A DNA stretch of 64,000 bases from assembly GCA_036567985.1 (NCBI GenBank), contig DATCTK010000089.1:29375-93374 (forward strand). The letters are read 5' to 3'. The stretch is from Gammaproteobacteria bacterium (GTDB taxonomy: Bacteria; Pseudomonadota; Gammaproteobacteria; SZUA-229). The stretch's first letter is position 1. Every line of letters begins with the position of its first letter. The notes below the pieces were generated by a model. The model worked only from the letters and a program-made list of their open reading frames with translations. It was not told the DNA's origin and did not search any database. This document shows positions 1 to 16,744 of this stretch, piece by piece. A program made the translations under genes and the position numbers.

Positions 1-237
1 TGCCACCCGGCCTCTGTATACCTGATTTCATGCGTGCGACGATATTCTGTTCGCTATCTGTAAACAGGGTTTCACTATCTGCCATGTCGAGCACACCGGG
101 CATATTTCCCGTTCCATCATCGCCATGACATACAATGCATGTGCTCAAGTAAATTTGTTCCGCGTCTTTTGCCAATGCAACCGGCAATCCTGACAGCGCT
201 GCCAGATAGACAGCTATAAAAGTTGCAAGCACCTTCA
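1..237 (-). CDS. c-type cytochrome, partial; the C-terminus lies beyond the window start
   Basis: Reverse-strand translation from ATG at 235-237 gives MKVLATFIAVYLAALSGLPVALA... with a CIVCH (CxxCH) haem-binding motif and a signal-peptide-like N-terminus. An AAGAGG RBS lies upstream. There is no stop inside the window. Confidence 0.6.
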
Positions 238-269
238 TTTACGACAACCTCTTTTCCGGTCTTCACACA

Positions 270-500
270 CTATTTTTCCAGTTCTTTGGCGCGGCGATTA
301 AATTCGTCTTCGTCAATTTCACCGCGTGCATAGCGTTTCTTCAGTATCGACATCGGACTTTCATCTATACTGGACGATACTGAATCATTGCTATTACTCG
401 CCACAAATTTTATAGCCAGCACAATTACCACAATGACTAAAATCCAGAATAGCCACATAAATCCACCTCCAAACCACATTGCTCCATCATGACTAAACAT
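270..500 (-). CDS. SHOCT-domain small membrane protein
   Basis: 76 aa. N-terminal hydrophobic helix, then a C-terminal KKRYARGEIDEDEFNRRAKEL motif typical of the SHOCT domain. It lies directly downstream of copA. Confidence 0.6.
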   Translation of the reverse strand: MFSHDGAMWFGGGFMWLFWILVIVVIVLAIKFVASNSNDSVSSSIDESPMSILKKRYARGEIDEDEFNRRAKELEK

Positions 501-516
501 AACAACTTACCTCCTC

Positions 517-2958
517 TTAAAGACGTATCCGCCGCAGGCGCAACGCATTGCTAATAACGGATACTGAACTGAAACTCATCGCCGCGGCTGCAATAATCGG
601 CGACAGCAGCAGACCAAAAAACGGGTACAACACACCGGCCGCAATTGGCACACCGGCAGAATTGTAAGCAAAGGCAAAGAACAGGTTCTGGCGTATATTA
701 CGCATAGTGGCGCGGCTCAGCTGACGTGCCCGCACAATGCCACGTAGATCGCCTTTCACCAGAGTGATACCAGCACTTTCCATTGCCACATCGGCGCCGG
801 TACCCATGGCAATACCTACCTGTGCCTGAGCCAGTGCCGGAGCATCATTAATACCGTCACCGGCCATGGCGACGGTTTTACCGGCCGCCTGCAACTGTTT
901 GACAATGGTGGCTTTCTGATCCGGCAACACCTCGGCTTCGACGCGATCAATATGTAACTGACGGGCAACTGCTTCGGCCGTGATCTGGTTATCACCGGTC
1001 AACATGATCACCTCGATGCCCTCCTCATGCAGGTCTGCAATGGCAGAGGCGGTACTCTGTTTAATCGGATCGGCGACACCGATAAGACCCGCAGCCTCGC
1101 CGTCAGCGGCCAGCAACATCACCGTCTGCCCTTCTGCTCGTAAACTGTCCGCCTGCGCTGACAGCGAGTCGCTGTCCACACCCAGTGACTGCATTAATGC
1201 AATATTGCCCAGTGCCAGTGCATGACCATCCACCTTGCCTGTTACACCCATGCCGGTTTTTGCTTCGAAGTTGTCCACCGATGATAATGCCAGCTCACGC
1301 TGCTTCGCCCCTTGCACAATGGCATCAGCCAGCGGATGCTCGCTGCCGCGTTCAAGACTGGCGGCTAAACGCAGTACCGTGTTTTCATCCTCACCATTAA
1401 CTACGAGCACCTGCATTAATTGAGGCCGACCTTCGGTAAGGGTGCCGGTTTTATCCACCACCAGCGTATCTACTTTCTCCATCACTTCCAGGGCTTCTGC
1501 ATTTTTGATCAGCACACCTACCGTGGCGCCACGGCCGGTGCCCACCATAATGGACAAGGGCGTAGCAAGACCCAGTGCGCAGGGACAGGCGATGATCAAC
1601 ACGGCCACGGCATTCACCAGGGCATAGGCTAGCCGGGGTTCCGGCCCCCATAAAAACCAGACGACAAAAGCAAGGAAGGCAATGATCACCACCACCGGCA
1701 CAAAGTAACTTGATACCGTATCGGCGAGTTGCTGAATTGGTGCCCGCGACCGCTGTGCTTCCGCGACCATATTAACAATCTGCGACAGCAGCGTATCAGC
1801 CCCCACTTTTTCTGCCTGCATCAACAGGCTGCCGTTGCCATTGACCGTGGCACCAATCAGAGTCTCATTTTTATACTTTACTACCGGCACCGGCTCACCC
1901 GTAACCATGGATTCGTCTACATTGCTTTCGCCTTCAACAACACGGCCGTCAACCGGAATTTTTTCTCCCGGACGAATACGCAGAATATCGCCCACCTGAA
2001 CCTGGTCCAGCGGAATGTCTTCTTCCTCACCATTTTGTCGGTGTATGCGCGCCGTATTGGGTGCCAGCCCCAGCAACATCTTAATCGCCGTATTGGTACG
2101 ACTGCGGGCACGCAGCTCCAGTACCTGTCCCAGCAATACCAACGTGGTAATTACTGCCGCCGCTTCAAAGTACACTGGCACGGTGCCATCATCATGTCGC
2201 ATGATGAGCGGAAATATCTGCGGCAGCAGCAGTGCCACCATGCTGAAACTCCAGGCCACGAATACACCAAGACCGATCAGGGTAAACATGTTCAGGTTCC
2301 AGGTTTTGACCGACTGTACTGCACGCACGAAAAACGGCCAACCGCCCCACCACACAACCGGTGTTGCCAGTACACATTCGATCCATTGGACGGATTTCAT
2401 TGACAGTCCATCAGGTAGCAAGCCGGGAGCAAGATCCGCGATCATCGCCAGAATAAATACCGGTAATGCCAGTACAGTGCTAACCCAGAAACGCCGGCTC
2501 ATATCCACTAGTTCCGGGTTCTCATCTTCCAGTGTTATTGTTCTTGGCTCGAGCGCCATGCCGCATTTAGGACAGCTACCTGGATGATCCTGAACAATTT
2601 CAGGATGCATGGGACAGGTATATTCGGTTTTTGTTTTAAGTGCAGATCCGTCTTTAGGCTCCAGTGCCATACCACACTTCGGGCAGCTGCCTGGATGATC
2701 CTGGATGATTTCAGGATGCATGGGGCAGGTGTATTCCAGGTACTCGATAGAACAACTGCCATCATCGCATGCTTCAACGTGCTGGGCCTGCAGCGACTCA
2801 CCTGTGTATGCCTGAGGATGTTGCACAAATTTGTGCTTGCAGTGCTGGCTACAGAAGTACCACATCTCACCCTGGTAATTGGCATGGAATTCTGAATCCA
2901 GTGTTACCGACATGCCGCACACCGGATCTTTCAGTTCGGTTTTATTTTCCACATTCAT
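517..2958 (-). CDS. copA: copper-translocating P1B-type ATPase with an N-terminal YHS domain and two tandem CPMHP...CPKCGM heavy-metal-binding repeats
   Basis: 813 aa. Contains a YHS-like CGMSV...FCSQHC motif, two ~39-aa repeats of YTCPMHPEI(I/V)[16 protein letters not shown], a TGE motif, the CPC transmembrane motif, DKTGTLT and GDGINDAP. Confidence 0.93.
2545..2745. repeat. ~115-bp tandem duplication, two units, inside copA; it encodes the duplicated metal-binding module
   Basis: Two near-identical DNA units of the form ggctc(g/c)ag(c/t)gccat(g/a)cc(g/a)ca...cctggatgatcctg(a/g)a(c/t)(a/g)atttcaggatgcatggg(a/g)cagg... are directly visible. Confidence 0.8.
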
Positions 2959-3108
2959 GATATCTGGTCTCCTGCTTACCGGGATGACGTTCGTATGGCT
3001 GCTGCTACGGTTAAACGATTATCATCTTTAAATGACCATTGGTGATTGGATACTATTCAATAATTACCGTTTAAAAGCCCATTGTGATAAACACCATGCT
3101 CAAGGCAT

Positions 3109-3339
3109 CTACTTATTGATTTTCAATAGCCGTTTCAGCTCAACTTCATCTGGCTGTCCCCTGCACACCACTTCGTTATCCACCATCAGATTGGGCGAGT
3201 GACGAATATGGTAGCGCGACACAGTCTCCGGATGGTCCTCTGCGAACAAAACTTCATAGGCGACACCCAGATCCTTCAGTTCCTTTTCCATACTGGATCG
3301 ATGGCTACAATTTCGAGTTGCGATAATTTTAACGTTCAT
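3109..3339 (-). CDS. small glutaredoxin/thioredoxin-fold-like protein with a CxxS motif
   Basis: 76 aa, N-terminal KIIATRNCSHRS. The size and pattern resemble glutaredoxin-like proteins. No close family was recognised. Confidence 0.35.
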   Translation of the reverse strand: MNVKIIATRNCSHRSSMEKELKDLGVAYEVLFAEDHPETVSRYHIRHSPNLMVDNEVVCRGQPDEVELKRLLKINK

Positions 3340-3379
3340 AATTATTCCTCACATAAGATGTACAAATAGAAAAGTGGCA

Positions 3380-3820
3380 TCACTGATCAATCACAGGTTT
3401 GCTTTGCAGCTGTAATGCCGACATGTTCGATGACGCTCCCTGGTAAAGCACATCGATGACACGTCCGTCGTCGTCGAACACCAGAGTGTAAGTCCGCTCG
3501 AAATCCGCTAGCGGGCTCTCTATCACTGTTTTCTTTTCACCGCTGGGCGTCACATAGGTTTTAAGTGTGCGATGTTTACTCATGCCGTAGACCCAGCCTT
3601 CGCGACCGTTGGCCAGGCGAACTTCTTTATCTGCCTTGCCGTGATGACTCATCACCGCAAGTTTTTTGAGACTGCCTAGCGGATAGGTTTTTAGCACCTG
3701 TTCGGGGCTGGCTTCATAGGTAAACCGCATGGGCATTTTCATACCATCGGCCATTAGCGACAGTGAGCACAGCATGGTGAGCATGCCGGACAGAAATAAA
3801 ACACCTGTTTTGTTAAACAT
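3380..3820 (-). CDS. hypothetical periplasmic protein (signal peptide)
   Basis: 146 aa with an N-terminal hydrophobic signal-like segment. No recognisable catalytic motif. Confidence 0.4.
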   Translation of the reverse strand: MFNKTGVLFLSGMLTMLCSLSLMADGMKMPMRFTYEASPEQVLKTYPLGSLKKLAVMSHHGKADKEVRLANGREGWVYGMSKHRTLKTYVTPSGEKKTVIESPLADFERTYTLVFDDDGRVIDVLYQGASSNMSALQLQSKPVIDQ

Positions 3821-3888
3821 GATTACATATCCTCATTAGATATTAATAACCGAGAAGACCGGGTCGTGAAGACCCGGACACCAGTGGT

Positions 3889-4371
3889 TTACTTCTTTTC
3901 AAGCTGTTCCATATGCTTGAGCATCTGCTGCATCATGTCCTGCATCATGCCCATGCGCTTTTCCATCATGGCACTGCGATCCGACATGCCACCCATCATC
4001 ATTCCGCCCTGTCCTTTGCCCATGCCCATTCCGTGGCTATCACCCTTGCCATCACTCTGGATCTTGGACATCGTGCCTTTATTATCCATCATCATGCCCT
4101 TGCCATCGGGATTCGGCATCATGCCACGCATTTTTTCCATCATACCCATCATGTCTTTCATGCTTTGCATATGATTATTCATATACTGTTTTTTCTTGCT
4201 GCTGTTATTCTCCTTTTGCATTTTCATTGCCATATCTTCGGCTTTTTCCATCTGCATATTGAACTTGTCGCCCATCATTTTCATATCACCCATATTCTGT
4301 TGAGCATAGACGCTGGTTATGGATGCAGTAGCCAGAAGCAGTGTGGTTACTAATATATATTTTTTCATCAT
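3889..4371 (-). CDS. methionine-rich periplasmic protein, a candidate Cu(I)-binding protein
   Basis: 160 aa. Signal peptide, then many MxxM / MMG / MGMGKGQGGMMMGG motifs. RBS GGAGAC lies upstream. It sits in the copper island. Confidence 0.6.
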   Translation of the reverse strand: MMKKYILVTTLLLATASITSVYAQQNMGDMKMMGDKFNMQMEKAEDMAMKMQKENNSSKKKQYMNNHMQSMKDMMGMMEKMRGMMPNPDGKGMMMDNKGTMSKIQSDGKGDSHGMGMGKGQGGMMMGGMSDRSAMMEKRMGMMQDMMQQMLKHMEQLEKK

Positions 4372-4560
4372 TAAGTCTCCTGTGAAATGTTGATTTAAAA
4401 CTCATGTGGCTCTAAACAATTCATCCATAAATTCTCAGAGCAGGAACAGAAACAGGATAAATTTCTATTTACCCTGTTATTTATTTTCAATGAATCATGC
4501 ATCATCGAAAATAGCGTCACATCTATGTGTCACAACATGCCTTATGTAATCAGTAATTCC

Positions 4561-4833
4561 TTAATTACTGTTTTGTAAAAACGTCAGAATATCCCGTGTC
4601 TCCTGCCCGGTGAGGCCACCGCGCACACGCATATGAAACACAGTAGTGATCCATTGATCGTCACGTAATTCATTTGAATCACGTAAATTATGACAACGCA
4701 TACAGTTATCAGACCAGGCTTTGGCGCCTCGCGCCATATCACCCTGCTCGGGAAAGTCCCCTCCCATCGCAGTCGTGCTGATTAACAAAAAGCCAATGGT
4801 TGCTGTATATATTTCTGGAAATATTTTTTTCAT
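4561..4833 (-). CDS. small c-type cytochrome
   Basis: 90 aa with a signal peptide and a CMRCH haem-binding motif. Confidence 0.6.
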   Translation of the reverse strand: MKKIFPEIYTATIGFLLISTTAMGGDFPEQGDMARGAKAWSDNCMRCHNLRDSNELRDDQWITTVFHMRVRGGLTGQETRDILTFLQNSN

Positions 4834-4844
4834 AGCAATTACTC

Positions 4845-6020
4845 CTAAAATCCGTAGCTAAGTTGTACTAGCCAGCGGTCATCACTTTCCAGGCCAGAGT
4901 TGGGGTTATCATTACTTTCGTAAGCCAGCTTGCCTATAAAATTATTGGTAAACAGCCGATTCAGGCCCAGTGTCAAATGCTCCTGATCCGCACTGGCATG
5001 AGGCGAATCAAATTCACCAGTACGTATCACGGCCTCGTAGTCATCATTGAAAAATTTGTAGGCCAGCTGAAGATACCAGGTCGACCATTCAGCGGCATCC
5101 GATGCATTACTGGTTGCTGCTTCAGCAACCTCGGTTTTTACATATTCACCGCGAACGTCCAACATCGTATTTCGCCAGGAAAAATCCATCCCATTAACAT
5201 CATAATCACGGGTTGGCTCATTGCTTAATGACGGACCCTCTACACCTTCGTACTCAGTTACTCTGGCCTGGCCGGTTAAGAGTGATACACCGATTTCAAG
5301 TGTCGAAATCGGCAGTACCGAAAAGCGTCCGCCGACGACTTTTTCACCGTCCCTGTCACGTCCAAATGCTTCAGCCTCTACACCGTCCAGCTCTACTTCA
5401 CCGTCTTCGACCTCGGCTTTCAACTCAGGACCGTTACCCATGTAGATCGCATAAGTGGCTTTCATGCTACCCAGATAAAAACCACCACGGGCTTGCACAC
5501 CCAGGTCAGATACCGGCGCTGCACCGTCATGACCAAACCCAGCTGGTGCTGATGGCAATTTGTTTATCCAGCACGGATGCAAGTTTTGTCTAAACTGACC
5601 TATTGGGCTTAAAAACTTACCAGCCACCAGCACCAGATAGTCATTTACAAACCAGTCAAGGGTCAGATATTCCAGTGCCGTTTCTGTCTCACCGTCTTCA
5701 CTCGTTGTCAGCTCAAGCTCCGATTCCAGCATCACCAAATCACGGTACTGATAATGAAAAATTGGCGCGAATGTACCCACATTAAAACTGCCATCATCTC
5801 CGCTGGCATCACTATTCACATAGCCCACATCAGCGTAGCCAGCCATGTGAATCAGTGTATTTGGATCACGCCATTCATTTGCTGCAGCCATTTCTGTTTT
5901 GAGTCGTTCAACGTCCTGTTTCAACTGCTCCAGCTCACTTGCTGCAAATCCTGTCGAATTCACGGACATAAGTGACAGCGAACACATTGTCGCCAGATAT
6001 AGTTTTTTTGATTTTTTCAT
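4845..6020 (-). CDS. outer-membrane beta-barrel, porin-like protein
   Basis: 391 aa. Signal peptide, alternating amphipathic segments and a C-terminal ...LSYGF aromatic terminus typical of OMPs. Confidence 0.55.
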   Translation of the reverse strand: MKKSKKLYLATMCSLSLMSVNSTGFAASELEQLKQDVERLKTEMAAANEWRDPNTLIHMAGYADVGYVNSDASGDDGSFNVGTFAPIFHYQYRDLVMLESELELTTSEDGETETALEYLTLDWFVNDYLVLVAGKFLSPIGQFRQNLHPCWINKLPSAPAGFGHDGAAPVSDLGVQARGGFYLGSMKATYAIYMGNGPELKAEVEDGEVELDGVEAEAFGRDRDGEKVVGGRFSVLPISTLEIGVSLLTGQARVTEYEGVEGPSLSNEPTRDYDVNGMDFSWRNTMLDVRGEYVKTEVAEAATSNASDAAEWSTWYLQLAYKFFNDDYEAVIRTGEFDSPHASADQEHLTLGLNRLFTNNFIGKLAYESNDNPNSGLESDDRWLVQLSYGF

Positions 6021-6273
6021 GAGTTATTCCTCATATTTACATTTGGTAATATTTGTAACGCTAGTGAACCGCCGCGCACTACTAAATCCGGTACGCAGGA
6101 GATAGGAGGTCGCAGGATAGAAACTGGAGTCGGTGAATCATGACGCTGATGCACGAACGGAATACTGAAAGAAATCATATTACCTGAGAAGTCAAAAACG
6201 TTAACAGGTGGAACAAGCATACTATGCAGCATGTCGCAGGATTCGCTGCTGCTATCACAACAGCACTGTTTAT

Positions 6274-6525
6274 CTATACATGATGCGCACTGCTCAGCAC
6301 TACCTGAGCGTATCGATAACGCTCCATCATGATGAGCAGTTTTTTTATTATGTGTGCGTGCTTTTCACTTATGCTGTCGACGAGGACGACTTCCGGCTCA
6401 CCGCATTGTTGTTCCTGACTGGCATACATCGTCTCCATTGGCGCTAATATTAAAACCAGCGTCACTGCAGTCGATACAATTTTTTGTGCCTGTCTATTCA
6501 ATTTATTATCCATGTTGTAACGCAA
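6274..6525 (-). CDS. hypothetical small protein; doubtful, no clear RBS
   Basis: ORF only. Between the porin gene and cusA. The ORF-track start uses TTG; an internal ATG (MDNK...) has no Shine-Dalgarno sequence. Confidence 0.15.
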   Translation of the reverse strand: MRYNMDNKLNRQAQKIVSTAVTLVLILAPMETMYASQEQQCGEPEVVLVDSISEKHAHIIKKLLIMMERYRYAQVVLSSAHHV

Positions 6526-6657
6526 TTACATACAAATAAAACGGGGCAACTTATATGTCGATCGTCCTCAACCTATACAATAGTTGAGCAACCCAACATT
6601 AACTCCATGGTTTATATCAGCAGTTATGAACCTGGTTACCAGTACGCATTGTTCACA

Positions 6658-9600
6658 TCACGCTTTTAGTGAACGTGTACGCCACAGAAAATACACCGCT
6701 GGCAACACCAGCAACGTCAGAATCACTGCGCTCAACATTCCACCCACCATCGGCGCCGCGATGCGGCTCATCACCTCAGACCCGGTACCGCTGCCGAACA
6801 TAATCGGTAGCAAACCAGCAATAATGGCACTGGCGGTCATCATCACTGGACGTACGCGCATACCCGCACCGTGCAGCACTGCATGGCGTAACGTTTCCAG
6901 CTTCGGCGCAACACCTTTCGTTTCGTATTCGGATTGCATCTGAGCATAAGCCTGGTTGAGATAAACCAGCATGATCACGCCGATCTCTACCGCCACACCG
7001 GCCAGCGCGATAAAGCCCACGCCCACCGCCACCGAGAAGTTGTAGCCAAGCAGGTACATCAGCCAGATGGCACCGATCATTGCCAGTGGCAAGGTGCCCA
7101 TGATGATGGCGACTTCAGCAAACCGGCGAAAGTTCATGTAGAGCAGCACAATAATGATGACCAGTGTCAGTGGCACCACATAGGTGAGCTTTTCTTTAGC
7201 TCGCAACATGTATTCGTACTGACCGGACCAGGTCACGGAATAGCCTGTTGGGAGTTCCAGTTGCTGTTTGACTGTTATCATGGCCTGCTCGACATAACTG
7301 CCCACATCTACGCCGTCAATATCAACAAAGGTCCAGCCGTTCAGTCGGGCGTTCTCACTCTTGATGGCCGGTGGACCGCCATCCACATAAACATTTGCCA
7401 CGTCGTCGAGCGCAATACGCTGCCCTTTTGGCGTAACGATGGGCAACAATGCCAGCTGTTCCGGAGAGTCACGGTAATCCTGTGGGTAACGCAGATTGAT
7501 TGGATAACGCTCAAGCCCCTCAATGGTCTGCGATACGTTCATACCGCCAATAGCCGTGGCCACCACCTGCTGCACATCGGCGATATTAAGGCCATAACGC
7601 GCCGCCTGTTCACGCTGTACATCCACCTTAATGTAGCGCCCACCGGCTACCCGTTCAGAATAAACCGAGGCCGTGCCGGGTACATCCTTAAGAATCTGTT
7701 CCAGTCGCTGACCAATTTTCTGAATTTCTTGCAGATCCTCACCCGCCACCTTGATACCCACCGGGGTCTTGATACCGGTAGCCAGCATGTCGATACGGGT
7801 TTTAATCGGCATCACCCATGCATTGGTCAGGCCGGGAAATTTCACCAGTGCATCCAGTTCCTTTTTAAGCTTGTCGGTGGTCATGCCATCGCGCCACTGG
7901 TCCTGTGGCTTAAGTTGAATAAACGTCTCTATCATGGTCAGTGGTGCCGGGTCGGTGGCTGTTTCGGCGCGACCAATCTTGCCGAACACGGTTTTTACTT
8001 CTGGCACCGTAGCAATCAGTTTGTCAGTCTGTTGCAGAAGCTCACGCGCCTTACCAATGGACAGACCCGGGTAGGTGGTGGGCATGTACATCAGGTCGCC
8101 TTCATCCAGACTGGGGATAAACTCACTACCGATCTTGTCCACCGGCCAGAAGCCTGCCAGTGTCAGCACCAATGCAACGACCAGGGCCATTTTAGGAAAG
8201 CGCAACACTGTTTTCAGTGCAGGCATGTAGAGCCCAATCAACAGACGATTGACAGGGTTTTTGTGTTCTGGCAGCACCTTGCCGCGAATGAAATAGCCCA
8301 TCAACACCGGCACCAGCGTCACCGCCAGTGCCGCACTTGCTGCCATGGCATAGGTTTTGGTAAACGCGAGCGGACTGAACATCCGACCTTCCTGCGCTTC
8401 CAGCGTGAACACCGGCACGAAGCTGACGGTGATAATCAGCAAACTGAAGAACAGCGCCGGCCCGACTTCCGCCGCCGATTCGGCGACAATCCTCCAGCGG
8501 TTTTCCGCCGTCAATGGCGTACGCTCCATGTGCTTGTGCATGTTCTCGATCATCACGATGGCACCATCGATCATCGCGCCGATGGCAATCGCAATACCAC
8601 CCAGTGACATGATATTGGCATTCAGGCCCTGCCAGTGCATCACAATAAAGGCAGTCAGAATACCCACCGGCAGACTGATAATCGCCACCAGTGACGAACG
8701 TATGTGAAACAGAAACACCATGCATACCAGCGCCACCACTGCGAACTCTTCCAGCAACTTGTGCCACAGGTTTTCCACCGCACGCTCGATCAATCCAGAT
8801 CGATCATAGACGGTGACGATTTCCACGCCCTCAGGTAAACCTGCCTTGAGTTTTTCCAGTTTGTTCTTAACACCATCAATGGTTCTCTGCGCATTCTCAC
8901 CAAAGCGCATCACCACGATACCGCCAACGGTTTCACCTTCACCATTAAGTTCGGCAATACCGCGACGCATCTGCGGCCCCAGTTCAATCTCTGCCAGATC
9001 CTTGAGCAACAAGGGAATACCATTGTCATTCACACCCAGGGGAATGTTGGCCAGGTCGTCAATGCCCTGAATATAACCACTGACCCGTACCATGTACTCG
9101 GCTTCCGCCATTTCCACTACCGAAGCACCCATTTCCTGGTTACCGCGCTGGATCGCCATCTGAATATGCGAGAGAGGAACACCGAACGCACGCAGTTTTT
9201 CCGGGTTCACTTTCACCTGATACTGCTTGACCATGCCGCCGAGCGCCGAGACTTCGGAAACCCCGGGTACTGTCTGCAGCTCGTATTTCAGGAACCAGTC
9301 CTGCAGACTGCGCAGCTGGCTGATGTCATGCTTGCCGGTACGGTCCACCAGTGCGTAGAGATAGACCCAACCCACACCCGTGGCATCCGGCCCCAGTTGT
9401 GGCCGGGCACTGGGCGGCAACGTGGGGGCCACCTGTGACAGGTATTCCAGCACCCGCGAACGCGCCCAGTAGGTGTCGGTATTCTCATCGAATATGACGT
9501 ACACATAGGAATCCCCGAAGAAGGAGTAGCCGCGCACGGTAACCGCACCCGGCACCGACAACATGGCAGTAGTCAGTGGATAGGTAACCTGATCTTCCAC

Positions 9601-9780
9601 CACCTGTGGCGCCTGTCCCGGATAGCTGGTTTTAATAATCACCTGTACATCGGACAGGTCGGGAAGCGCATCCACCGGCGTATTTTTCAGGGAATAAAGA
9701 CCAACGCCCACCAGCAGCAGGGTGGCCAGCAGCACGAAAAAGCGGTTAGCGATGGACCAGCGGATCAACGACTCAATCAT
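6658..9780 (-). CDS. cusA: CusA/CzcA-family heavy-metal efflux RND permease
   Basis: About 1040 aa from the likely start MIESLIRWSIANRFF (ATG at 9778-9780), which overlaps the cusB stop by 8 nt. 12-TM RND architecture and typical HME-RND conserved blocks. Confidence 0.92.
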   Translation of the reverse strand: MIESLIRWSIANRFFVLLATLLLVGVGLYSLKNTPVDALPDLSDVQVIIKTSYPGQAPQVVEDQVTYPLTTAMLSVPGAVTVRGYSFFGDSYVYVIFDENTDTYWARSRVLEYLSQVAPTLPPSARPQLGPDATGVGWVYLYALVDRTGKHDISQLRSLQDWFLKYELQTVPGVSEVSALGGMVKQYQVKVNPEKLRAFGVPLSHIQMAIQRGNQEMGASVVEMAEAEYMVRVSGYIQGIDDLANIPLGVNDNGIPLLLKDLAEIELGPQMRRGIAELNGEGETVGGIVVMRFGENAQRTIDGVKNKLEKLKAGLPEGVEIVTVYDRSGLIERAVENLWHKLLEEFAVVALVCMVFLFHIRSSLVAIISLPVGILTAFIVMHWQGLNANIMSLGGIAIAIGAMIDGAIVMIENMHKHMERTPLTAENRWRIVAESAAEVGPALFFSLLIITVSFVPVFTLEAQEGRMFSPLAFTKTYAMAASAALAVTLVPVLMGYFIRGKVLPEHKNPVNRLLIGLYMPALKTVLRFPKMALVVALVLTLAGFWPVDKIGSEFIPSLDEGDLMYMPTTYPGLSIGKARELLQQTDKLIATVPEVKTVFGKIGRAETATDPAPLTMIETFIQLKPQDQWRDGMTTDKLKKELDALVKFPGLTNAWVMPIKTRIDMLATGIKTPVGIKVAGEDLQEIQKIGQRLEQILKDVPGTASVYSERVAGGRYIKVDVQREQAARYGLNIADVQQVVATAIGGMNVSQTIEGLERYPINLRYPQDYRDSPEQLALLPIVTPKGQRIALDDVANVYVDGGPPAIKSENARLNGWTFVDIDGVDVGSYVEQAMITVKQQLELPTGYSVTWSGQYEYMLRAKEKLTYVVPLTLVIIIVLLYMNFRRFAEVAIIMGTLPLAMIGAIWLMYLLGYNFSVAVGVGFIALAGVAVEIGVIMLVYLNQAYAQMQSEYETKGVAPKLETLRHAVLHGAGMRVRPVMMTASAIIAGLLPIMFGSGTGSEVMSRIAAPMVGGMLSAVILTLLVLPAVYFLWRTRSLKA

Positions 9781-11401
9781 GCTGATGCTCCTGCTGAGGA
9801 CTGTCGGGGCGCATACCATTAGGGTCGTTTTGCTCCGGCATTAACATCGCATCGTGGTTCATCCCATCACGCTGACTGTGATCCATTTCAGCCGGCATGG
9901 CATCGTCAGCTGACTCCTGATCCGGGATATGCACCTGGGTCAGCTGGTAATTTCCGTCACTGTCCCTGCTGATCTGCACATGCAGGCGCATTCCCGCTTT
10001 GAGTGCGTCCATGTCCACGCCCTCATCAACAGTAAAGTCCATGGTCATCGCCGGCCACTGCCAGTCTGCTATCGCCTCGTGCTCAAGCGTAACCATGCGA
10101 TGCCCCGGCATCAGCTCATTGATTTGCGCACCCACCCAGACTGAACGCGGGCCAGCGTCTGCTCCCGCAGCGCTCGATTTTTCGCCTTGCGAGCCACGCG
10201 GGGCCATACGCTTGAAGTCCGACGTCTTGCTGGACTCCGAGTCGATCAGGAACTGTGCAGAGGTCACAATGCGTTCCCCCTCGTTGAGGCCCGAGCGGAT
10301 TTCCACCTGATCCTCACCCACGCGCCCGATCTTTACCGCCAGCGATTTAAATTGACCATCACCCAGCGCCAGCACTACCCGCGACTGGCTGCCGGTACGA
10401 ATCAATGCTTCGCGTGGTATTAACAGCGCTTTATCCCCCGGCCGGGTTTCAATAATCATCTGCGCGAACATACCCGGCTTCAGAAAAGCATCCGGATTAT
10501 CAAAATACACACGAACCTGCGCGGTGCGGGTCTTCTCGTTTAACGACGGATAGATATAATTCACCTCTCCCTGCCATTCACGGCCGGGCAGATAATCCAG
10601 CCACATGCGCACCTTATCGCCTTCTCTGACCCGATCCACCTGACGCTCGAAGACTTCTCCGATCACCCAGATGTGTTCCAGCTGCCCAATGCTCATCATA
10701 TTCATGCCAGGCTTAACATACATGCCCTCACGAACCGTGAGATTGTCCACTACCCCCGAACGGGGTGCGGCAACGGTGATGGTCTGATTAACTTTGCGGG
10801 TTTTGCGTAAGCGCTCGATATCCGCCCGCGGTACTTGCAGCGACAACAGGCGTTCCACCGCCGCGCTAATTAGCAAAGCATTGCCGCGCTTCAAGGCCAA
10901 CAGTAATTCCTCCTGGGCATTGACCAGAGTGGGTGAATAGAGTGCGTACAACGGCTTCCCCTGCGTCACCGGATCACCCACCGATTTGACGTAGAGTTTT
11001 TCAATCCAGCCTTCCACCCTGGGATGCATGTGAGTCAGGCGGTCTTCATCGTACTGCACATAGCCTACGGTTTTGACATCAAGGTCGAGCCGTCCAGATT
11101 CCACCCTGGCGGTGCGAACACCGAGATTGTTGATGACCTCGGGCGAGATTTTAACGGTACCGACTTCATCATTCCCGGCACCGTCCGCATAAACCGGAAT
11201 CAGGTCCATGCCCATGGGCGATTTGCCGGGTTCATCGCGCTGGTAGTTGGGATCCATAGGTGCCACCCAGTAAAGCGGCTTGCGTTCACCGCCGTTTGCT
11301 GTCGCGCCCTGTTCATTTGAGCTGCTCAACAACCAGACAGCGGATGCGCCGAGCAGCGCACCAATAGCCACGCCCAGTATAGTTTTGCTCAATGTATTCA
11401 T
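9773..11401 (-). CDS. cusB: RND periplasmic adaptor (CusB/SilB-like) with a C-terminal CusF-like metallochaperone domain
   Basis: 542 aa. The MFP core runs up to ...QFLIDSESS. A ~150-aa extension follows with VWVGAQINELMPGHRMVTLEHEAIADWQWPAMTMDFTV (CusF-like H/M/M/W pattern) and a His/Met-rich tail. Confidence 0.85.
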   Translation of the reverse strand: MNTLSKTILGVAIGALLGASAVWLLSSSNEQGATANGGERKPLYWVAPMDPNYQRDEPGKSPMGMDLIPVYADGAGNDEVGTVKISPEVINNLGVRTARVESGRLDLDVKTVGYVQYDEDRLTHMHPRVEGWIEKLYVKSVGDPVTQGKPLYALYSPTLVNAQEELLLALKRGNALLISAAVERLLSLQVPRADIERLRKTRKVNQTITVAAPRSGVVDNLTVREGMYVKPGMNMMSIGQLEHIWVIGEVFERQVDRVREGDKVRMWLDYLPGREWQGEVNYIYPSLNEKTRTAQVRVYFDNPDAFLKPGMFAQMIIETRPGDKALLIPREALIRTGSQSRVVLALGDGQFKSLAVKIGRVGEDQVEIRSGLNEGERIVTSAQFLIDSESSKTSDFKRMAPRGSQGEKSSAAGADAGPRSVWVGAQINELMPGHRMVTLEHEAIADWQWPAMTMDFTVDEGVDMDALKAGMRLHVQISRDSDGNYQLTQVHIPDQESADDAMPAEMDHSQRDGMNHDAMLMPEQNDPNGMRPDSPQQEHQHD

Positions 11402-11413
11402 ACTTGAATTCCT

Positions 11414-12754
11414 TTAAAACGTTTCTACCGACTGCGCATCGTCAGGCGATACCTGGGCAAGCAGGTAATTGATCTGAGAAATAATTTTCTGTCGCTCCAC
11501 GGCGATATCAAGCGCATCAATTTTGGCATTCAACTCGGCAATACGCGCCCTCACAGCTTCAGCGAAGTCGCCGTCGTCATTGTTGTATGCTGTCAGTGAT
11601 GCGCTTGCCTGCTCCACCATCTGTGGCAGCAGCTGCTCGGTATAAAGTATCTGGCGCTCTTCCAGACGTTCCAGTTGTACACGCGCGGTTTCCAGTTCTG
11701 CCATCAACTGGCGGGCAAGCAACTGCTTTTCTGTTTTGATGACTTCGCTTCGGTTAACGGCGGCACTCACTTCCCTGTCCTGCCGGTTAGCGGTGAAAAC
11801 GGGCAAATCAAACGTCACACCAATAGAAAACAGATCGGCTCTGTCTCGCCCCAGTGGATCACTGTCGCGGTAGCCGTATTGAGCTGTCAGGCCCCATTCG
11901 GGTTTGTATTTCTGCTTCGCCAGATCAACGCCGGTTTCCGTTGCGTCGATACGCTGATCCAGTGCGCGCAAAGCGGGATGATGGCGGATTGATTCATATA
12001 AATTTTGCGTGCTGGCTGTTTCAGTGGATGGAGATGTCAACGATCTCACAGGAGAGATCGTTGGCAAAACTGGTGCGATGGTTGTTGTGGCAGGCGCTCC
12101 AATCCATTCAGACAGACGTTGCTGTGCAGACTGCTGTTTTTGCCTGAGCACTGTCAGGCGATCAGACAGCCGAGTCAGCTCGAGCTGCGCACGGATCACA
12201 TCATGCTGGCGCACTCGGCCCAGCGCCGATGAATAACTGGCTTCGGTGACGTCCACCAGTTGTTCGAAAAGGACACGATCCTGCTCGATCAGCCGGATAG
12301 TTTCCTGTGCCTTATAGGCTTCGAGCCACAACTGGGTGACCGTGGCGGTTACGCGGGCGCGACGGTTCATTCGCAGCAGAGGATGCTGCTCTGCAAGCTG
12401 CCGCTTTTGTTGCTGAGTGAGCGACAGGCTGTCACCCCGGGGGAACATCTGTGAGATACCTACCGATAACTGGGTCATGGCTTCCTGGTTGATATCGAAA
12501 GTGTCTACCGGAAAATTACCAGCCATCAGACTTATTCGTGGATCAGGTAAAGTCGCTGCAGCGCTCGCCTCATCAGTAAGCGCCTGCTGGGTATACTGGC
12601 TACCGCTAAGCCAGGGATCGGCATGCGTGGCTAAAGTGACTGCCTGTTCCAGAGTCAGGACTTCAGGAAGAGATTGTGCAACGGCCACTGCACTGCCCAT
12701 AGTAAGCAGCGGGGTGAGCGGCAGAATAAAAAACATTGTGATGAAAATTCTCAT
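11414..12754 (-). CDS. cusC: outer-membrane factor (TolC/CusC family) of the RND efflux system
   Basis: 446 aa. Signal peptide, OMF-type repeats. It overlaps the downstream cusB operon and the upstream copG by ATGA. Confidence 0.85.
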   Translation of the reverse strand: MRIFITMFFILPLTPLLTMGSAVAVAQSLPEVLTLEQAVTLATHADPWLSGSQYTQQALTDEASAAATLPDPRISLMAGNFPVDTFDINQEAMTQLSVGISQMFPRGDSLSLTQQQKRQLAEQHPLLRMNRRARVTATVTQLWLEAYKAQETIRLIEQDRVLFEQLVDVTEASYSSALGRVRQHDVIRAQLELTRLSDRLTVLRQKQQSAQQRLSEWIGAPATTTIAPVLPTISPVRSLTSPSTETASTQNLYESIRHHPALRALDQRIDATETGVDLAKQKYKPEWGLTAQYGYRDSDPLGRDRADLFSIGVTFDLPVFTANRQDREVSAAVNRSEVIKTEKQLLARQLMAELETARVQLERLEERQILYTEQLLPQMVEQASASLTAYNNDDGDFAEAVRARIAELNAKIDALDIAVERQKIISQINYLLAQVSPDDAQSVETF

Positions 12755-13287
12755 GGCTGCACTTCCTGTTGATTAAATGGCTGATGTTGCTGAGCCACGC
12801 TTTGCACACTAGCAAACACGTCTGTGCGTCCATCTTTTTTTATCAGCAAAACCTGGTAAGGCATAAACTTATCCTGGTACTCCATCCCCGGACTACCAAC
12901 GGGCATGGACGGCACTGTCAGCCCTATAGCGTCAGCAGGTGGACTAGCCAGAAACTGATGAATATAACGAGCAGGGATATGTCCCTCAAAGATATAACCT
13001 TGTGACGACACGGCTGTATGACAAGAACGCTGGTTATTCGCTATTTGATAACGATCCTTGATGGCGTCAAGATTTGCCGGATGCTCGGCACCTGCTTGTA
13101 AGCCCTCTGCTTCGATGTGATCTATCCATTTCTTACAACAGCCACAGGCTGGGGTCTTGTAGACCGTAAGCATTTCTGCATCACCGGCAGTTTGTTCAGA
13201 TGCCTGAAGTGTTTGCGATACACTGTTACAGGCTACAAGCAAGGGGATCAACGCTGGCACCAAACCCGTTAATTTAAACCGATGCAT
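12751..13287 (-). CDS. copG: DUF411 / CopG-family periplasmic copper-binding protein
   Basis: Trimmed to ATG at 13285-13287 (MHRFKLTGLVPALIPLLVAC..., preceded by a GGAGGT RBS). It has the CGCC motif (TPACGCCKKW) characteristic of DUF411. Confidence 0.75.
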   Translation of the reverse strand: MHRFKLTGLVPALIPLLVACNSVSQTLQASEQTAGDAEMLTVYKTPACGCCKKWIDHIEAEGLQAGAEHPANLDAIKDRYQIANNQRSCHTAVSSQGYIFEGHIPARYIHQFLASPPADAIGLTVPSMPVGSPGMEYQDKFMPYQVLLIKKDGRTDVFASVQSVAQQHQPFNQQEVQP

Positions 13288-13473
13288 GGTTACCTCCAGA
13301 AACATATAGTTTGCATGCTTGAGGGTTCGATAGCAGATTGACAGATTTATTTCTGACAACCACAGACCGGTGTTTAGTTGTCAGCATGCCTAACACACAA
13401 TGGTTGTAAGTGAACCGTTCAGGCGCATGGTTTATTCGACTACCCACCACAGTTTTGCCTTCAGTATCAGTCA

Positions 13474-14814
13474 TCAGTGCTGCTCATGAGTATTGCTCTC
13501 ATGCTCGACTTTTCTTGAGTGTAAAAATAACAGTTCACCAATCGCAATCAGCAGCATTGCAATAACAGCGACACCAATAACAAATGGATCGGAATTAAGC
13601 TTCACCCAGATAAACCCAGCCAGTACCAGCAAGTTTAAAATAATTGCCGTAAACGGAACCCAACGACTGGCCTGAACATCGTGTAGCAGGTAACGCAATA
13701 CGCCCCACTGTAATGCCACATCCATTATCAGATAGAAGATAATACCCAGCGCAGCGATGCGGGACAGGTCGAAAAACGCAGTAAGCAGCAGACCCAGCAC
13801 TACGGTATAAACTAGTGTGTGTTTCTGAACGCTGCCTGGCATACCAAAGTGTCTATGCGGCACCAGCTTCATTTCTGACAACATCGCCAGCATTCTGGAC
13901 ACTGCAAAAATACTGGCAATAATTCCCCCTGCAGTTGCCATCATGGCAATCGCCACTGTGAACCAGACGCCGTACTCGCCAAGCGCAGGTCGAGCAGCTG
14001 CCGCCAGTGAATAATCACGGGTCTCAATAATCTCACTAAGGGAAAGATTACCGGCGACGGTAAAGCCGACCAGCATGTAGATAACAACACAGGCAGCGAT
14101 TGAAATAACAATGGCCCGACCAACATTGCGACGCGGATCGATTATCTCAGATCCACTATTAGTAATAGTAGTAAAACCCTTGAATGCCAGAATACCAAGT
14201 GCTGTAGCACCGAGAAAGCTGCCGACGACACCACTGTTTTGCTGGGAGCTGAAATTAACTGTAACACCATCAATCAGACTGACACCCACCAGGCCAAAAA
14301 CCAGTATGCCGCCGATTTTCAATATACCAATGAAGCCCGCGACTCTCTGGATCGACCGATTACCTAGCAGATTTATAACGAACGCGGTCAGAATAAGCGC
14401 CACACCCAGCACCGGCACCATCAGGCCAGACTCATCACCGCCAAATAATTGCATGGTATAGGCACCGAATGTACGGGCTAGAAAACTTTGTGCAATCACC
14501 ATTGAGAAGTACATTAACAACGCATTGAATGCGGTAGGCAATCGATCACCATAAGCCTTGTAAAGATACATGCCTATGCCACCCGCAGATGGATAAGTGT
14601 TAGAAATTTTGATGTAGGAATAAGCGCTAAAAGACACAATTACAGCGGCAGCCAGAAAAGCCAGCGGAAACAACACGCCTGTCATTTCAGCCATCTGACC
14701 TGTCAGGGCAAAAATACCGGCGCCAATCATGACCCCGGTACCCAGCATAACTGTACCTGCCAGAGTCAGGCTTCCCTCTGCATAGCTCGTTTTATGATCT
14801 TGTTGTTGCGTCAT
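13474..14814 (-). CDS. APC-family amino acid permease
   Basis: 446 aa, about 12 TM segments, with the typical APC N-terminal glycine-rich TM1 (GAGIFALTG). Confidence 0.75.
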   Translation of the reverse strand: MTQQQDHKTSYAEGSLTLAGTVMLGTGVMIGAGIFALTGQMAEMTGVLFPLAFLAAAVIVSFSAYSYIKISNTYPSAGGIGMYLYKAYGDRLPTAFNALLMYFSMVIAQSFLARTFGAYTMQLFGGDESGLMVPVLGVALILTAFVINLLGNRSIQRVAGFIGILKIGGILVFGLVGVSLIDGVTVNFSSQQNSGVVGSFLGATALGILAFKGFTTITNSGSEIIDPRRNVGRAIVISIAACVVIYMLVGFTVAGNLSLSEIIETRDYSLAAAARPALGEYGVWFTVAIAMMATAGGIIASIFAVSRMLAMLSEMKLVPHRHFGMPGSVQKHTLVYTVVLGLLLTAFFDLSRIAALGIIFYLIMDVALQWGVLRYLLHDVQASRWVPFTAIILNLLVLAGFIWVKLNSDPFVIGVAVIAMLLIAIGELLFLHSRKVEHESNTHEQH

Positions 14815-14953
14815 GCTATTCCTTAATTTTCACTTCGATGCAGTGACGACATGAAGACGGATTAAGCAGCTAAAGGTTACTGGCACTCTCACCCAGGTAA
14901 CCCCGCTGTTGTTTTATGGTTATCTAACATAAGTTTTCTTCAATAACCGATCC

Positions 14954-15514
14954 TCAATGATGACCAGAATCACCCACATCGCGTACGCTCAGTATCTGGT
15001 ATTGCGGCGACGATAACTCTGGCAGACGCTGCAAGAAAGCCACCATATTCCAGATGCGCTCATCATCATGGCCCGCACCCCAGGCAGGCATACCTGACGC
15101 CTTGATACCGTGCTTGATAATCCAGAAATGCTTCCGCGCTCGCACGCTGACATCCTCCTGATGATTTTCGGTTTGGGTGAGGTCTGGTGGCTGTGGATAA
15201 AGTCCCAGGGTAAAGTCGCTCTGAGTCACGCCCGGTTTTAGATGGCAACCAACGCACATATCATTGTAATCTGCACCACCAGCCAACAACCGCTCGGCCG
15301 AAGCCAAATCGGTTGGCACCTGAATGTCGCTTGATGCGCGAGCAATGGATCGCTCACGCAAGGTTTCCAGCGCCCAATATGTCAGGTCGTTATGATGATC
15401 ATCGGCACCCATCGGATAAAAGCCTGAAAAGAGGAACCCCACACCAGTCACCACCGCCACGCTCGCTGCAGCGACAAGACACTTAAAACAGGACAGAATT
15501 TTAAAGAACGCCAT
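14954..15514 (-). CDS. c-type cytochrome (class I-like)
   Basis: 186 aa. N-terminal TM/signal segment and a CVGCH haem-binding motif. Confidence 0.65.
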   Translation of the reverse strand: MAFFKILSCFKCLVAAASVAVVTGVGFLFSGFYPMGADDHHNDLTYWALETLRERSIARASSDIQVPTDLASAERLLAGGADYNDMCVGCHLKPGVTQSDFTLGLYPQPPDLTQTENHQEDVSVRARKHFWIIKHGIKASGMPAWGAGHDDERIWNMVAFLQRLPELSSPQYQILSVRDVGDSGHH

Positions 15515-15546
15515 GTTATCTCCTGAGATATCGCGACCTGTTATTT

Positions 15547-15822
15547 TTAGTGCTGGTGCCTGGAGAGCTTTGTTGCAGCTGTTTTATCGTCATGCGAGTC
15601 CCCCTCGTTCTGACGCATGGCTTTCATACATTTTTTCATCATGGCCTGCGTCAGCGGATCATCCATGTTCATTTTTGAGTGATCCATATCTTCCATCATC
15701 GAACAGTCTGGCGCCGATGCCTGCGCCTCTTTCATGTGTTTGTCGGGGGAATGCGCGTGAGCTGACAGAGCAAGCATTAATGCCGGCAGAGCAACGAGAT
15801 AAGAGCGTATTTGTGGTTTCAT
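15547..15822 (-). CDS. small secreted His/Met-rich protein, a candidate periplasmic copper chaperone
   Basis: 91 aa. Signal peptide, then HAHSPDKHMKE...CSMMEDMDHSKMNMDD...MMKKCMKAM...SRHQH. RBS AGGA lies upstream. Confidence 0.5.
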   Translation of the reverse strand: MKPQIRSYLVALPALMLALSAHAHSPDKHMKEAQASAPDCSMMEDMDHSKMNMDDPLTQAMMKKCMKAMRQNEGDSHDDKTAATKLSRHQH

Positions 15823-15967: not shown

Positions 15968-15984
15968 CATTACAAAGATGTCAT
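15968..15984. promoter_or_regulatory. CusR/CopR-type copper-box-like palindrome in the divergent promoter between the cytochrome operon and cusRS
   Basis: CATTACAAAGATGTCAT. Its reverse complement ATGACATCTTTGTAATG matches the ATGACAAnnTTGTCAT CusR-box consensus at 12 of 14 positions. It lies ~70 bp upstream of cusR. An outer ATTACA...TGTAAT inverted repeat also spans 15969-15994. Confidence 0.45.
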
Positions 15985-16051: not shown

Positions 16052-16744
16052 ATGCGATTACTGCTGGTGGAAGACGAAATTAAAACTGGCGACTACTTGC
16101 GACAAGGTCTAACTGAAGCCGGCTTCCAGGCAACCCTGGTTAGAAATGGACTAGATGGTCACCACCTGGCAATGACCGAGTCATTCGATCTGATTGTGCT
16201 GGATGTCATGCTGCCCGACGTGGATGGCTGGCGCATAGTGCAGTCACTGAGGGAAGCCGAAAACCAGACACCCGTGTTGTTTCTGACCGCGCGTGACAGC
16301 GTGGATGATCGCGTCAAGGGGCTGGAGTTAGGAGCGGATGACTATCTGGTAAAGCCCTTTGCTTTTGCTGAGTTACTGGCGCGAGTGCGCACTCTGTTGC
16401 GTCGAGGATCGGCCCCACCTCTGACGGATCAGCTCAGAGTGGCCAACCTCACCCTGGATTTACCCAGGCATCAAGTGACACGCGCCGGCCGGAAAATCAG
16501 CCTCAGTCATAAGGAATTCTGCCTACTGGAACTGCTGGTGCGACGTCAGGGTGAAGTGTTGCCACGTTCACTGATCGCCTCTCAGGTGTGGGACATGAAT
16601 TTTGACTCCGATACCAACGTGATCGACGTCGCCATCCGTCGCCTACGCGCCAAAATTGACGACAACTTCAAACCCAGGCTGATCCATACGGTACGCGGCA
16701 TGGGTTACAAGCTCGACGCAGAAGCTGACAATGAAAACAACTGA
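16052..16744 (+). CDS. cusR: OmpR-family heavy-metal response regulator
   Basis: 230 aa. REC domain (LLVEDE..., [14 protein letters not shown]), then a winged-helix output domain. It pairs with the downstream kinase. Confidence 0.88.

Follow-up and report, generated by a model that had tools for sequence, protein, structure and literature searches.

A copper/silver export island with two conserved cytochrome c units and a predicted exported methionine-rich protein in a gammaproteobacterial contig

SilE is disordered when free and folds upon the binding of about six Ag+ ions (PMC5008109), and the His/Met-rich disordered domain at the N-terminus of PcoB is necessary for function and stabilises its partner PcoA (PMC12509749). 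Reviews describe CopG of Pseudomonas aeruginosa as a copper oxidoreductase with a tetranuclear Cu4 cluster, which is linked to copA and cusCBA and is important anaerobically (PMC7558416, PMC8456105). The CopM protein of Xanthomonas is presented as having a cytochrome c domain and as being required for full copper resistance (PMC10924375, which cites Behlau 2011). The pairing of a cytochrome c with CopG is already in the literature; the CueR regulon of Vibrio parahaemolyticus comprises a cytochrome c alongside copA and copG (PMC12341060). Here, we examine a stretch of 64,000 nucleotides from an uncultured marine Gammaproteobacteria bacterium (positions 29,375 to 93,374 of the forward strand of contig DATCTK010000089.1, assembly GCA_036567985.1), which we call the window, and in particular a gene at 3889-4371 on its minus strand that encodes a Met-rich protein of 160 amino acids, together with the copper genes among which it lies.

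The segment 1-18137 of the window is a copper/silver export island. Its core consists of the ATPase CopA and the CusCBA pump under the control of CusRS, and to this core two conserved accessory units have been added: a His/Met-rich protein and a membrane-anchored cytochrome c that accompany CopG behind a copper box (Unit 1), and a predicted outer-membrane porin with two small cytochromes c (Unit 2). We assign a probability of about 0.6 to the reading that this is a copper/silver island with two accessory units in which the Met-rich protein would buffer or carry periplasmic Cu(I)/Ag(I). An earlier description made from the letters of the DNA alone (the sequence-only reading) had joined the Met-rich protein, the His/Met protein, three cytochromes and CopG into a single periplasmic redox module. 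These are indeed parts of a copper island, but they belong to two separate conserved units, and the 186-aa cytochrome alone travels with the DUF411 (CopG) gene.

The Met-rich protein and its gene

The Met-rich protein has 40 methionines among its 160 residues, a share of 25% that rises to 28% in the mature chain. There are 12 MxxM and 12 MM motifs, no cysteine and three histidines; to call the protein almost entirely MxxM/MMG was an overstatement. By established coordination chemistry, a set of ligands without cysteine and with three histidines would favour the soft ions Cu(I) and Ag(I). The signal peptide ends between VYA and QQ, which leaves residues 24-160 as the mature protein, the gene has an AGGAG ribosome-binding site, and a hairpin lies 3' of its stop codon.

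Relatives of this protein are few. A word-indexed search among 5.8 billion clusters gave 6, and an exhaustive profile search among 1.84 billion representatives gave 23 at E<=1e-3, of which 9 were at E<=1e-10 and two further at about 1e-9 to 1e-6. In an alignment of 15 members the invariant columns are H67, M68, M75, M78, M140, M143 and M146, and on helices 2 and 3 the methionines form a stripe with i, i+3/4 spacing (p about 0.001-0.004 against shuffles). AlphaFold2 (AF2), given the 15 sequences, predicts helices at 31-53, 57-84 and 130-159 with a predicted local distance difference test score (pLDDT) of about 78-85, joined by a Gly/Met linker which, with a pLDDT of about 40, is predicted to be disordered; the pLDDT for the protein was 51 with 5 sequences and 63.5 with 15. 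From these features the protein is predicted to be exported, and it is conserved.

Searches of the curated collections assigned the protein to no described family. At E<=0.1 for the protein itself and E<=1 for 10 of its relatives Pfam gave only sub-threshold chance matches, NCBIfam matched neither it nor these 10 relatives, a PDB profile search and a Foldseek search with the better AF2 model gave no meaningful match, and tblastn against plasmids gave none. Several candidates were considered and rejected. DUF305 (Synechocystis CopM), LTXXQ/Metal_resist (CpxP/Spy/ZraP) and the Csp bundles gave no Pfam, PDB or fold match; we assume that Pfam holds models for these families. The CopK model NF033793 recognises CopK of pMOL30 (1.8e-40) and neither the Met-rich nor the 91-aa His/Met protein, and tblastn with CopK found no match in the window. 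Likewise, NF047789 scores SilE at 8e-87 and matches neither of the two proteins, and hhalign aligned SilE with the Met-rich protein at a probability of 2.2%, in the signal peptide region only. We regard the Met-rich proteins as an unannotated family of Met-lined helical proteins, a novelty that is modest but concrete.

On the opposite strand, an open frame of 146 codons (3913-4353, plus strand) runs in the same codon register as the Met-rich gene, and it is strikingly His-rich because ATG mirrors CAT in that register. A mirror frame of this sort is to be expected from any very Met-rich gene and is a trap for gene callers. If the His-rich frame were the true gene, the Met-rich frame would be an artefact of chance or of antisense reading. 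Among the homologs, however, substitutions concentrate at the third position of the sense frame (24/22/51, 35/33/52 and 54/36/67 at positions 1/2/3), and the antisense frame is interrupted by 3-5 stops in the homologs from loci L091 and L092. Both the signal peptide and the ribosome-binding site belong to the sense strand, on which the whole 16-gene run of the island lies. Coding selection acts on the Met-rich frame and not on its mirror, which we reject as an artefact; that the His-rich frame should be the real gene is scarcely credible. The sequence-only reading had also allowed that the Met-rich frame might not be conserved, and the relatives and the selection on the sense frame speak against this.

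The two accessory units and the genes around them

The island has the following features, given with coordinates, strand and, where noted, the basis of the assignment.

16731-18137, plus strand: cusS, heavy-metal two-component system
16052-16744, plus strand: cusR, of the same two-component system
15969-15984, minus strand: copper box ATGACATCTTTGTAAT, in the divergent promoter region of cusR and the His/Met protein gene
15547-15822, minus strand: 91-aa exported His/Met protein (sequence, homologs)
14954-15514, minus strand: 186-aa membrane-anchored monohaem cytochrome c of the CopM type (Pfam, homology)
13474-14814, minus strand: APC-family permease (homologs in related copper islands)
12751-13287, minus strand: DUF411/CopG protein with CGCC, SCHT and MPVGSPGM motifs and lipobox LVAC (Pfam, PDB)
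11414-12754, minus strand: cusC, of the Cu(I)/Ag(I) RND efflux pump
9773-11401, minus strand: cusB, of the same pump
6658-9819, minus strand: cusA, of the same pump
6274-6513, minus strand: 79-aa open reading frame (ORF)
4845-6020, minus strand: predicted OprO/P-like outer-membrane porin of 391 aa with C-terminal YGF (homologs)
4561-4833, minus strand: 90-aa monohaem cytochrome c (cytc90), CMRCH...HMR (motif conservation)
3889-4371, minus strand: Met-rich exported protein, 160 aa
3380-3820, minus strand: 146-aa exported protein with function unassigned (homologous neighbour in L002 and L091)
3109-3339, minus strand: Thioredoxin_3-like (Trx-like) protein of 76 aa with CSHR in place of CxxC (Pfam)
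517-2958, minus strand: CopA, P1B-type Cu(I) ATPase (sequence, homolog domains)
270-500, minus strand: SHOCT-domain small membrane protein (Pfam)
1-238, minus strand: third monohaem class I cytochrome c, CIVCH, running off the window edge (Pfam)

The genes of 1-15822 form a single run of 16 on the minus strand, beyond which lies the divergent cusRS pair (16052-18137), and a Shine-Dalgarno-like sequence precedes each small gene of the island.

The first unit opens with the 91-aa His/Met/Cys-rich secreted protein, which proved to be as the sequence-only reading had it: 12 methionines, 7 histidines, 2 cysteines and a signal peptide. Its family conserves a mature N-terminus of the form H-[DS]-P-x-x-H, the two cysteines and an MDHSKM motif; the latter presumably resembles the copper-binding repeats of Pseudomonas CopA/CopB. 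Among the curated families of Pfam and NCBIfam there were sub-threshold chance matches only. The 186-aa cytochrome that follows has CVGCH and GMPAWG motifs and an N-terminal membrane anchor, and it matches Cytochrome_CBB3 at E=6.5e-12 (46 bits against a cut-off of 27). Homologs are present on 285 plasmids of PLSDB, and the cytochrome is 51-66% identical to those of Moraxella, Psychrobacter and Methylophaga islands; on the Moraxella and Methylophaga plasmids divergent cusRS-type regulators, a small hypothetical gene and the cytochrome homolog are followed by DUF411. The DUF411 protein itself, also correctly recognised from the letters alone, matches PF04214 at 74 bits (cut-off 27 bits; E=7.9e-21) and CopG of PDB 6WIS at E=6.8e-25 over residues 40-160. 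CGCC, SCHT, EGH and MPVGSPGM are invariant in 4 CopG homologs, and every cluster ligand of the solved CopG is kept in the protein of the window. The solved CopG has no lipobox, whereas that of the window has one; with an invariant cysteine the box reads LVAC in the window and LTGC, LTAC and LAAC in the relatives L006, L007 and L008, and proteins that bear it are probably membrane-tethered lipoproteins.

The association of these genes was followed by a DUF411-alignment scan of the GTDB species genomes, of which the 80 closest loci were kept. The 186-aa cytochrome is present in at least 20 of these loci and the His/Met protein in at least 16, counts that are lower bounds owing to contig ends and in a sample dominated by 29 Psychrobacter loci; the co-occurrence of DUF411 with a cytochrome c, which the sequence-only reading had proposed to look for in other genomes, is seen in this share of the loci. 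The His/Met protein always precedes the cytochrome, as its obligate upstream partner, and the pair usually stands some 500 bp upstream of DUF411, in divergent orientation to cusRS. Carriers of Unit 1 include Psychrobacter, Methylophaga, Microbulbifer, Cellvibrionaceae, Colwellia, Bermanella, Oleispira and Dasania, and also Moraxella. The copper box ATGACAnnnTTGTAAT at 15969-15984 is the sole exact copy in the 64 kb, and an identical box occupies the equivalent site in Psychrobacter, Moraxella and Methylophaga loci. We take this motif to be the classical CopR/CusR copper box, and it is a candidate CopR/CusR site for Unit 1. What is new here, again modest but concrete, is the conserved pair of His/Met protein and cytochrome behind the copper box. 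Between the cytochrome and CopG genes of the window sits the APC permease (13474-14814), which is of the amino-acid type; close homologs (73-95%) recur in several metagenome loci and within the copper islands of Psychrobacter, Bermanella and Oleispira.

The two remaining cytochromes belong to Unit 2. All three of the small cytochromes c named in the sequence-only reading are present with their CxxCH motifs, the boundary of the first in the window being at 238 and not at 237. This is the third cytochrome, whose gene starts at 238 and runs off the window edge; the complete protein, seen in the 98%-identical metagenome contig L095, has 109 aa. It has a signal peptide and the motifs CIVCH and IAMPP, and its 79-aa fragment passes Cytochrom_C with 22.4 against 21.3 bits. 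The 90-aa protein cytc90 (4561-4833) has a signal peptide and CMRCH with HMR; its Pfam score of 20.7 bits falls narrowly below the same gathering cut-off of 21.3, and its NCxRCHNxR...HMR signature is invariant in 7 homologs. The porin gave no Pfam match of its own at E<=0.1. Its homolog in L094, 51% identical, has precomputed Porin_4 and Porin_O_P matches, the Glaciecola homolog is annotated as a phosphate-selective porin and other relatives as porin, and the C-terminal YGF is invariant.

A metagenome scan with the porin alignment gave at least 364 relatives, of which the best 80 were analysed. Among these, cytc90 lies directly downstream of the porin and on the same strand in 72 of the 72 loci with at least 400 bp downstream, and of the 59 loci with room for a second cytochrome at least 48 have one in the next 900 bp; most of the loci that lack it there show overlaps, fusions or a displaced arrangement like that of the window. 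cusCBA and/or copA occur within 10 kb in 28 of the 33 porin loci of at least 12 kb, often in the same strand run. Furthermore, the Trx-like gene, CopA and the SHOCT gene are interleaved between the two cytochromes in the window, in L095 and in L097, which argues against mere hitch-hiking of the cassette.

On a plasmid of Legionella anisa (NZ_CP082853; L089, 10834-15020) a 758-aa protein has cytochrome domains fused to a porin barrel. The fusion contains three tandem monohaem domains of the 109-aa type (CxxCH at 63, 175 and 322) and a barrel homologous to the porin of the window; the next gene joins a 90-aa cytochrome domain to a further domain of the 109-aa type, and a trihaem cytochrome follows. 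In Alteromonas the dihaem cytochrome fusion occurs alone, not joined to the porin. Such gene fusions in Legionella and Alteromonas are classical evidence for physical association. We found no description of the porin/two-cytochrome cassette in the open-access literature, and this cassette tied to copA/cus appears to be very common, marine and undescribed. It could conceivably serve some other substrate, such as iron, sulfur compounds or an anion imported by an OprP-type porin, and have hitch-hiked into metal islands: 5 of the 33 long loci have neither cus nor copA within 10 kb, the Glaciecola porin is annotated as phosphate-selective, and an Alteromonas cassette lies near hydrogenase genes. 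The presence of cus or copA in the other 28 and the interleaving described above are poorly explained in this manner, and we consider it very unlikely.

A different question is whether the three cytochromes are simply respiratory proteins that happen to lie here, as the sequence-only reading had allowed. Among the defined respiratory families of NCBIfam (CcoP, c550/c551, TorC, bc1 QcrC and others) the best scores were 13-29 bits against cut-offs of 118-478, for example 27 against 180 bits for ccoP and 18 against 478 for TorC, and all three cytochromes are syntenic with copper genes across many genera. They are conserved components of copper islands and not respiratory strays. In a more elaborate form of the respiratory view, they do not act on copper but are replacement or extra electron carriers that sustain respiration under stress, when copper impairs the maturation of c-type cytochromes, and the Met-rich protein is unrelated to them. 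The assembly of c-type cytochromes is a documented periplasmic target of copper (PMC4600104), all three proteins are ordinary monohaem class I domains, and a Methylophaga plasmid with Unit 1 also has ccm haem-maturation genes. Yet replacement carriers have no need of an unvarying position directly after a porin or of the Legionella fusion, their steady pairing with CopG and the His/Met protein behind a copper box would be unexpected, and no respiratory family model was matched. This explanation we consider unlikely.

The Met-rich gene has its own distribution. Every locus encoding a relative is a metal-efflux locus, in which the slot of the gene is constant and its neighbours are shuffled; the slot is preceded by the cytochrome(s) and followed by the Trx-like gene and CopA. 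Thus the order is porin, cytc90, cytochrome c, Met-rich, Trx-like and CopA in L099 and L101, and the same in L096, whose island is otherwise 75-96% identical to that of the window. L092 and L093 have porin, cytc90, Met-rich, SHOCT, cytochrome c, beta-propeller and P-II, and L003 has CusCBA, P-II, a 125-aa gene, Met-rich, Trx-like and CopA. The order in L094 is P-II, Trx-like, Met-rich, a 127-aa gene, porin, cytc90, a 146-aa gene, a 186-aa cytochrome c, CopA, SHOCT and beta-propeller. On the Alteromonas macleodii plasmid pKD02 the porin and a dihaem cytochrome c are followed by a less Met-rich relative of 143 aa. In L002 and L091 the gene of the 146-aa protein is directly downstream of the Met-rich gene, as in the window; the 146-aa protein of L094 was considered as a further homolog and rejected as not homologous.

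The proximity of a thioredoxin-fold gene might suggest that the Met-rich protein does not bind metal but offers its methionines as a sacrificial sink for oxidants generated by copper, or is a chaperone like Spy/CpxP; a content of 28% methionine in an exported helical protein would suit the former and a low-confidence, partly disordered model the latter. The Trx-like protein, however, has neither a signal peptide nor CxxC and so offers no periplasmic repair of methionine sulfoxide, and there is no msrP/msrQ-like gene in the island. A chaperone of the known kinds finds no Pfam match, LTXXQ and Metal_resist included, in the protein or its 10 relatives, and the invariant methionines in their i, i+3/4 stripe fit the geometry of ligands better than bulk scavenging. 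We therefore hold a sink or a chaperone to be distinctly unlikely.

Proposed copper handling and the surroundings of the island

In the reading that we prefer, CopA would move Cu(I) out of the cytoplasm into the periplasm, where the Met-rich and His/Met proteins would hold it on thioether and imidazole ligands. The Met-rich protein would bind several Cu(I)/Ag(I) ions through its two Met-striped helices and its flexible Gly/Met linker. In the periplasm it would serve as a buffer, or as a carrier that connects the output of CopA with either the Cus pump or the unit of porin and cytochromes. Its likeness to SilE is one of logic and not of sequence, and the precedent of SilE makes such a sponge or carrier reasonable, short of proof. 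The copper-box promoter would drive the His/Met protein, the anchored cytochrome and the lipoprotein CopG. To our knowledge, CopG is the only copper oxidoreductase proposed to be independent of O2. It may oxidise Cu(I) to a less toxic form when an acceptor is available and otherwise reduce copper to the substrate of Cus, while the anchored cytochrome would link this interconversion of Cu(I) and Cu(II) to the respiratory chain; we infer a transfer of electrons between the cytochromes and CopG or copper. CusCBA would finally export Cu(I) from the periplasm to the outside. The two soluble monohaem cytochromes probably dock on the OprP-like porin, a contact for which the gene fusions argue, and the porin-cytochrome unit may, by analogy with PcoA/PcoB, provide a second redox or exit step at the outer membrane.

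A bolder version makes of Unit 2 and a Met-lined Cu(I) carrier an O2-independent outer-membrane route for the redox conversion or exit of copper, a counterpart of PcoA/PcoB without a multicopper oxidase. At the mouth of the channel the cytochromes would then oxidise Cu(I), or else reduce Cu(II), exchanging electrons with the respiratory chain, and the Met-rich protein would be the thioether analogue of the Cys-lined Csp copper-storage bundles. We regard this version as doubtful, if conceivable.

Several observations weigh against the buffer or carrier reading and the two-unit island on which it is built. The packing of the helices in the AF2 model is unreliable (predicted template modelling score 0.29), and the Met-rich helices could equally form an ordinary hydrophobic core. 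The Met-rich gene is very rare, being found in 4 of the 80 porin loci and in none of the 80 DUF411 loci; both units can thus do without it, and it is an optional accessory. Of the three cytochromes a single one, that of 186 aa, is linked to CopG. The samples used for co-occurrence were ranked by similarity and are dominated by few genera and by truncated contigs. Lastly, the region upstream of Unit 2 yielded no copper box. A relaxed search for the box gave 26 where 21 were expected, which is background level, and a second motif common to the promoters of the porin and the His/Met protein (TTACAAANATKWCM), derived from the same two promoter sites on which it was scored, was not significant, two matches being reached in 11 of 100 shuffles; these results thus give no support to the idea that CusR also regulates Unit 2.

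The CopM-type anchored cytochrome and its His/Met companion behind the copper box provide a concrete candidate for the electron partner of CopG. The pairing in Unit 1 spans several gammaproteobacterial orders and can thus be tested in cultivable Psychrobacter, Moraxella, Methylophaga and Xanthomonas. Moreover, the Unit 1 pair, the porin cassette and the Met-lined family are annotated merely as 'cytochrome c', 'porin' and 'hypothetical protein', and surveys of copper resistance miss them.

The smaller genes near CopA have some regularities of their own. The Trx-like gene is directly upstream of this type of CopA in 20 of the 80 porin loci, and its product, instead of being a redox protein, may assist CopA in the cytoplasm as a partner or chaperone. 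The N-terminus of CopA reads as a YHS/TRASH-like CGM...CSQHC followed by two CPMHPE...CPKCGM repeats, and not as a classical CxxC HMA domain. The SHOCT gene is kept behind either CopA or the Met-rich gene. In L095 (16159-17507, which continues beyond position 1 of the window) the third cytochrome is succeeded by a YncE-like beta-propeller of seven blades (329 aa) and a P-II-like protein (106 aa), and the same pair comes after CopA and SHOCT in about one quarter of the long porin loci. The 79-aa ORF between cusA and the porin (6274-6513, minus strand) encodes one hydrophobic segment; it is kept in L096 (67%), L001 (49%) and L002 (37%), in the latter two at a distance of about 700 bp upstream of the Met-rich gene, and appears frameshifted in L095. 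A TGTAA-n5-TTACA palindrome is immediately 5' of it. A further putative redox unit of metal islands, a trio composed of a 2Fe-2S/NAD-binding protein, a hypothetical protein and a c3-like multihaem cytochrome, recurs beside such islands (L006, 21549-24903, and L090, 15438-18921, on Methylophaga and Alteromonas plasmids; L001, 3480-6139) and is absent from the window.

Outside the island the window is ordinary chromosome, with glycogen genes, G6PD and purA. The border region (19080-21392) contains a HigB/HigA-like pair, assigned by eye from the ORFs, and a TOTE-type AEP primase-helicase (PF22548, 1e-98). Sixteen kb beyond lies a second heavy-metal RND pump (34648-39233), whose adaptor (37788-39233) bears an HMBD, the same type of repeat as in CopA. 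Among cultured bacteria, Methylophaga has the closest relatives of the island genes; a DUF411 gene 100% identical to that of the window is present in a mud-derived gammaproteobacterial metagenome-assembled genome, and in comparison with the plasmids of PLSDB the DNA of the island is similar at the level of cusA only, with 79% to a Methylophaga plasmid. A scan for consensus promoters and terminators gave matches at or below the shuffle expectation, and across the whole 64-kb window no multicopper oxidase, CopB, CopC/D, cupredoxin or CopK was found.

Comparison with known systems

Xanthomonas CopM resembles the 186-aa cytochrome of the window in its membrane anchor, its CxxCH and GMPAWG motifs, and the adjacent CopG homolog and P-type ATPase. 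On pXAS220 the homolog, 48% identical by tblastn, lies between copB and DUF411 and ahead of a P-type ATPase; this is the position of copM in the copLABMGF cluster of Xanthomonas, and the protein is a true homolog. The two systems differ in that Xanthomonas has the copA/copB oxidase arm, which the island of the window is without. The Xanthomonas cytochrome has a long His/Met-rich C-terminal tail, in place of which the window has the separate 91-aa His/Met protein ahead of the cytochrome, and the island of the window, unlike Xanthomonas, has an APC permease before CopG.

Plasmid pMOL30 of Cupriavidus metallidurans is like the window in having DUF411 directly beside a small cytochrome c and a P-type ATPase; its genes bear the names copF-copG-copJ, copI and copT, copJ being presumably the cytochrome c gene after copG. 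The pMOL30 cytochromes (174 and 274 aa) were considered as homologs of the 186-aa cytochrome and rejected, the identity of 25-29% over the haem domain being a generic similarity. pMOL30 has a multicopper oxidase, CopC/D, a cupredoxin and CopK, whereas the window has none of these.

SilE and PcoE are similar to the Met-rich protein in being small and Sec-exported, in their soft-metal ligands, in being partly disordered and helical on folding, and in lying beside a Cus/Sil pump. SilE combines histidine with methionine motifs, whereas the Met-rich protein relies on methionine almost purely. With PcoA/PcoB (CopA/CopB) the logic is alike: a redox protein is encoded together with a barrel of the outer membrane and a flexible Met-rich segment that binds copper. 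The redox part of PcoA/PcoB, however, is an O2-dependent multicopper oxidase and that of the window consists of c-type cytochromes; the barrel of the window is OprP-like and gave no match to PcoB by tblastn, and its Met-rich element is a separate protein, unlike the domain of PcoB.

Finally, the multihaem cytochromes of MtrCAB (Shewanella) and Pcc (Geobacter) are threaded through large barrels and reduce external minerals. Unit 2 resembles these systems in that an outer-membrane barrel is encoded with c-type cytochromes, and in Legionella fused to them. It differs from them in its one- or two-haem class I domains, its 391-aa OprP-like porin and its context of copper efflux.

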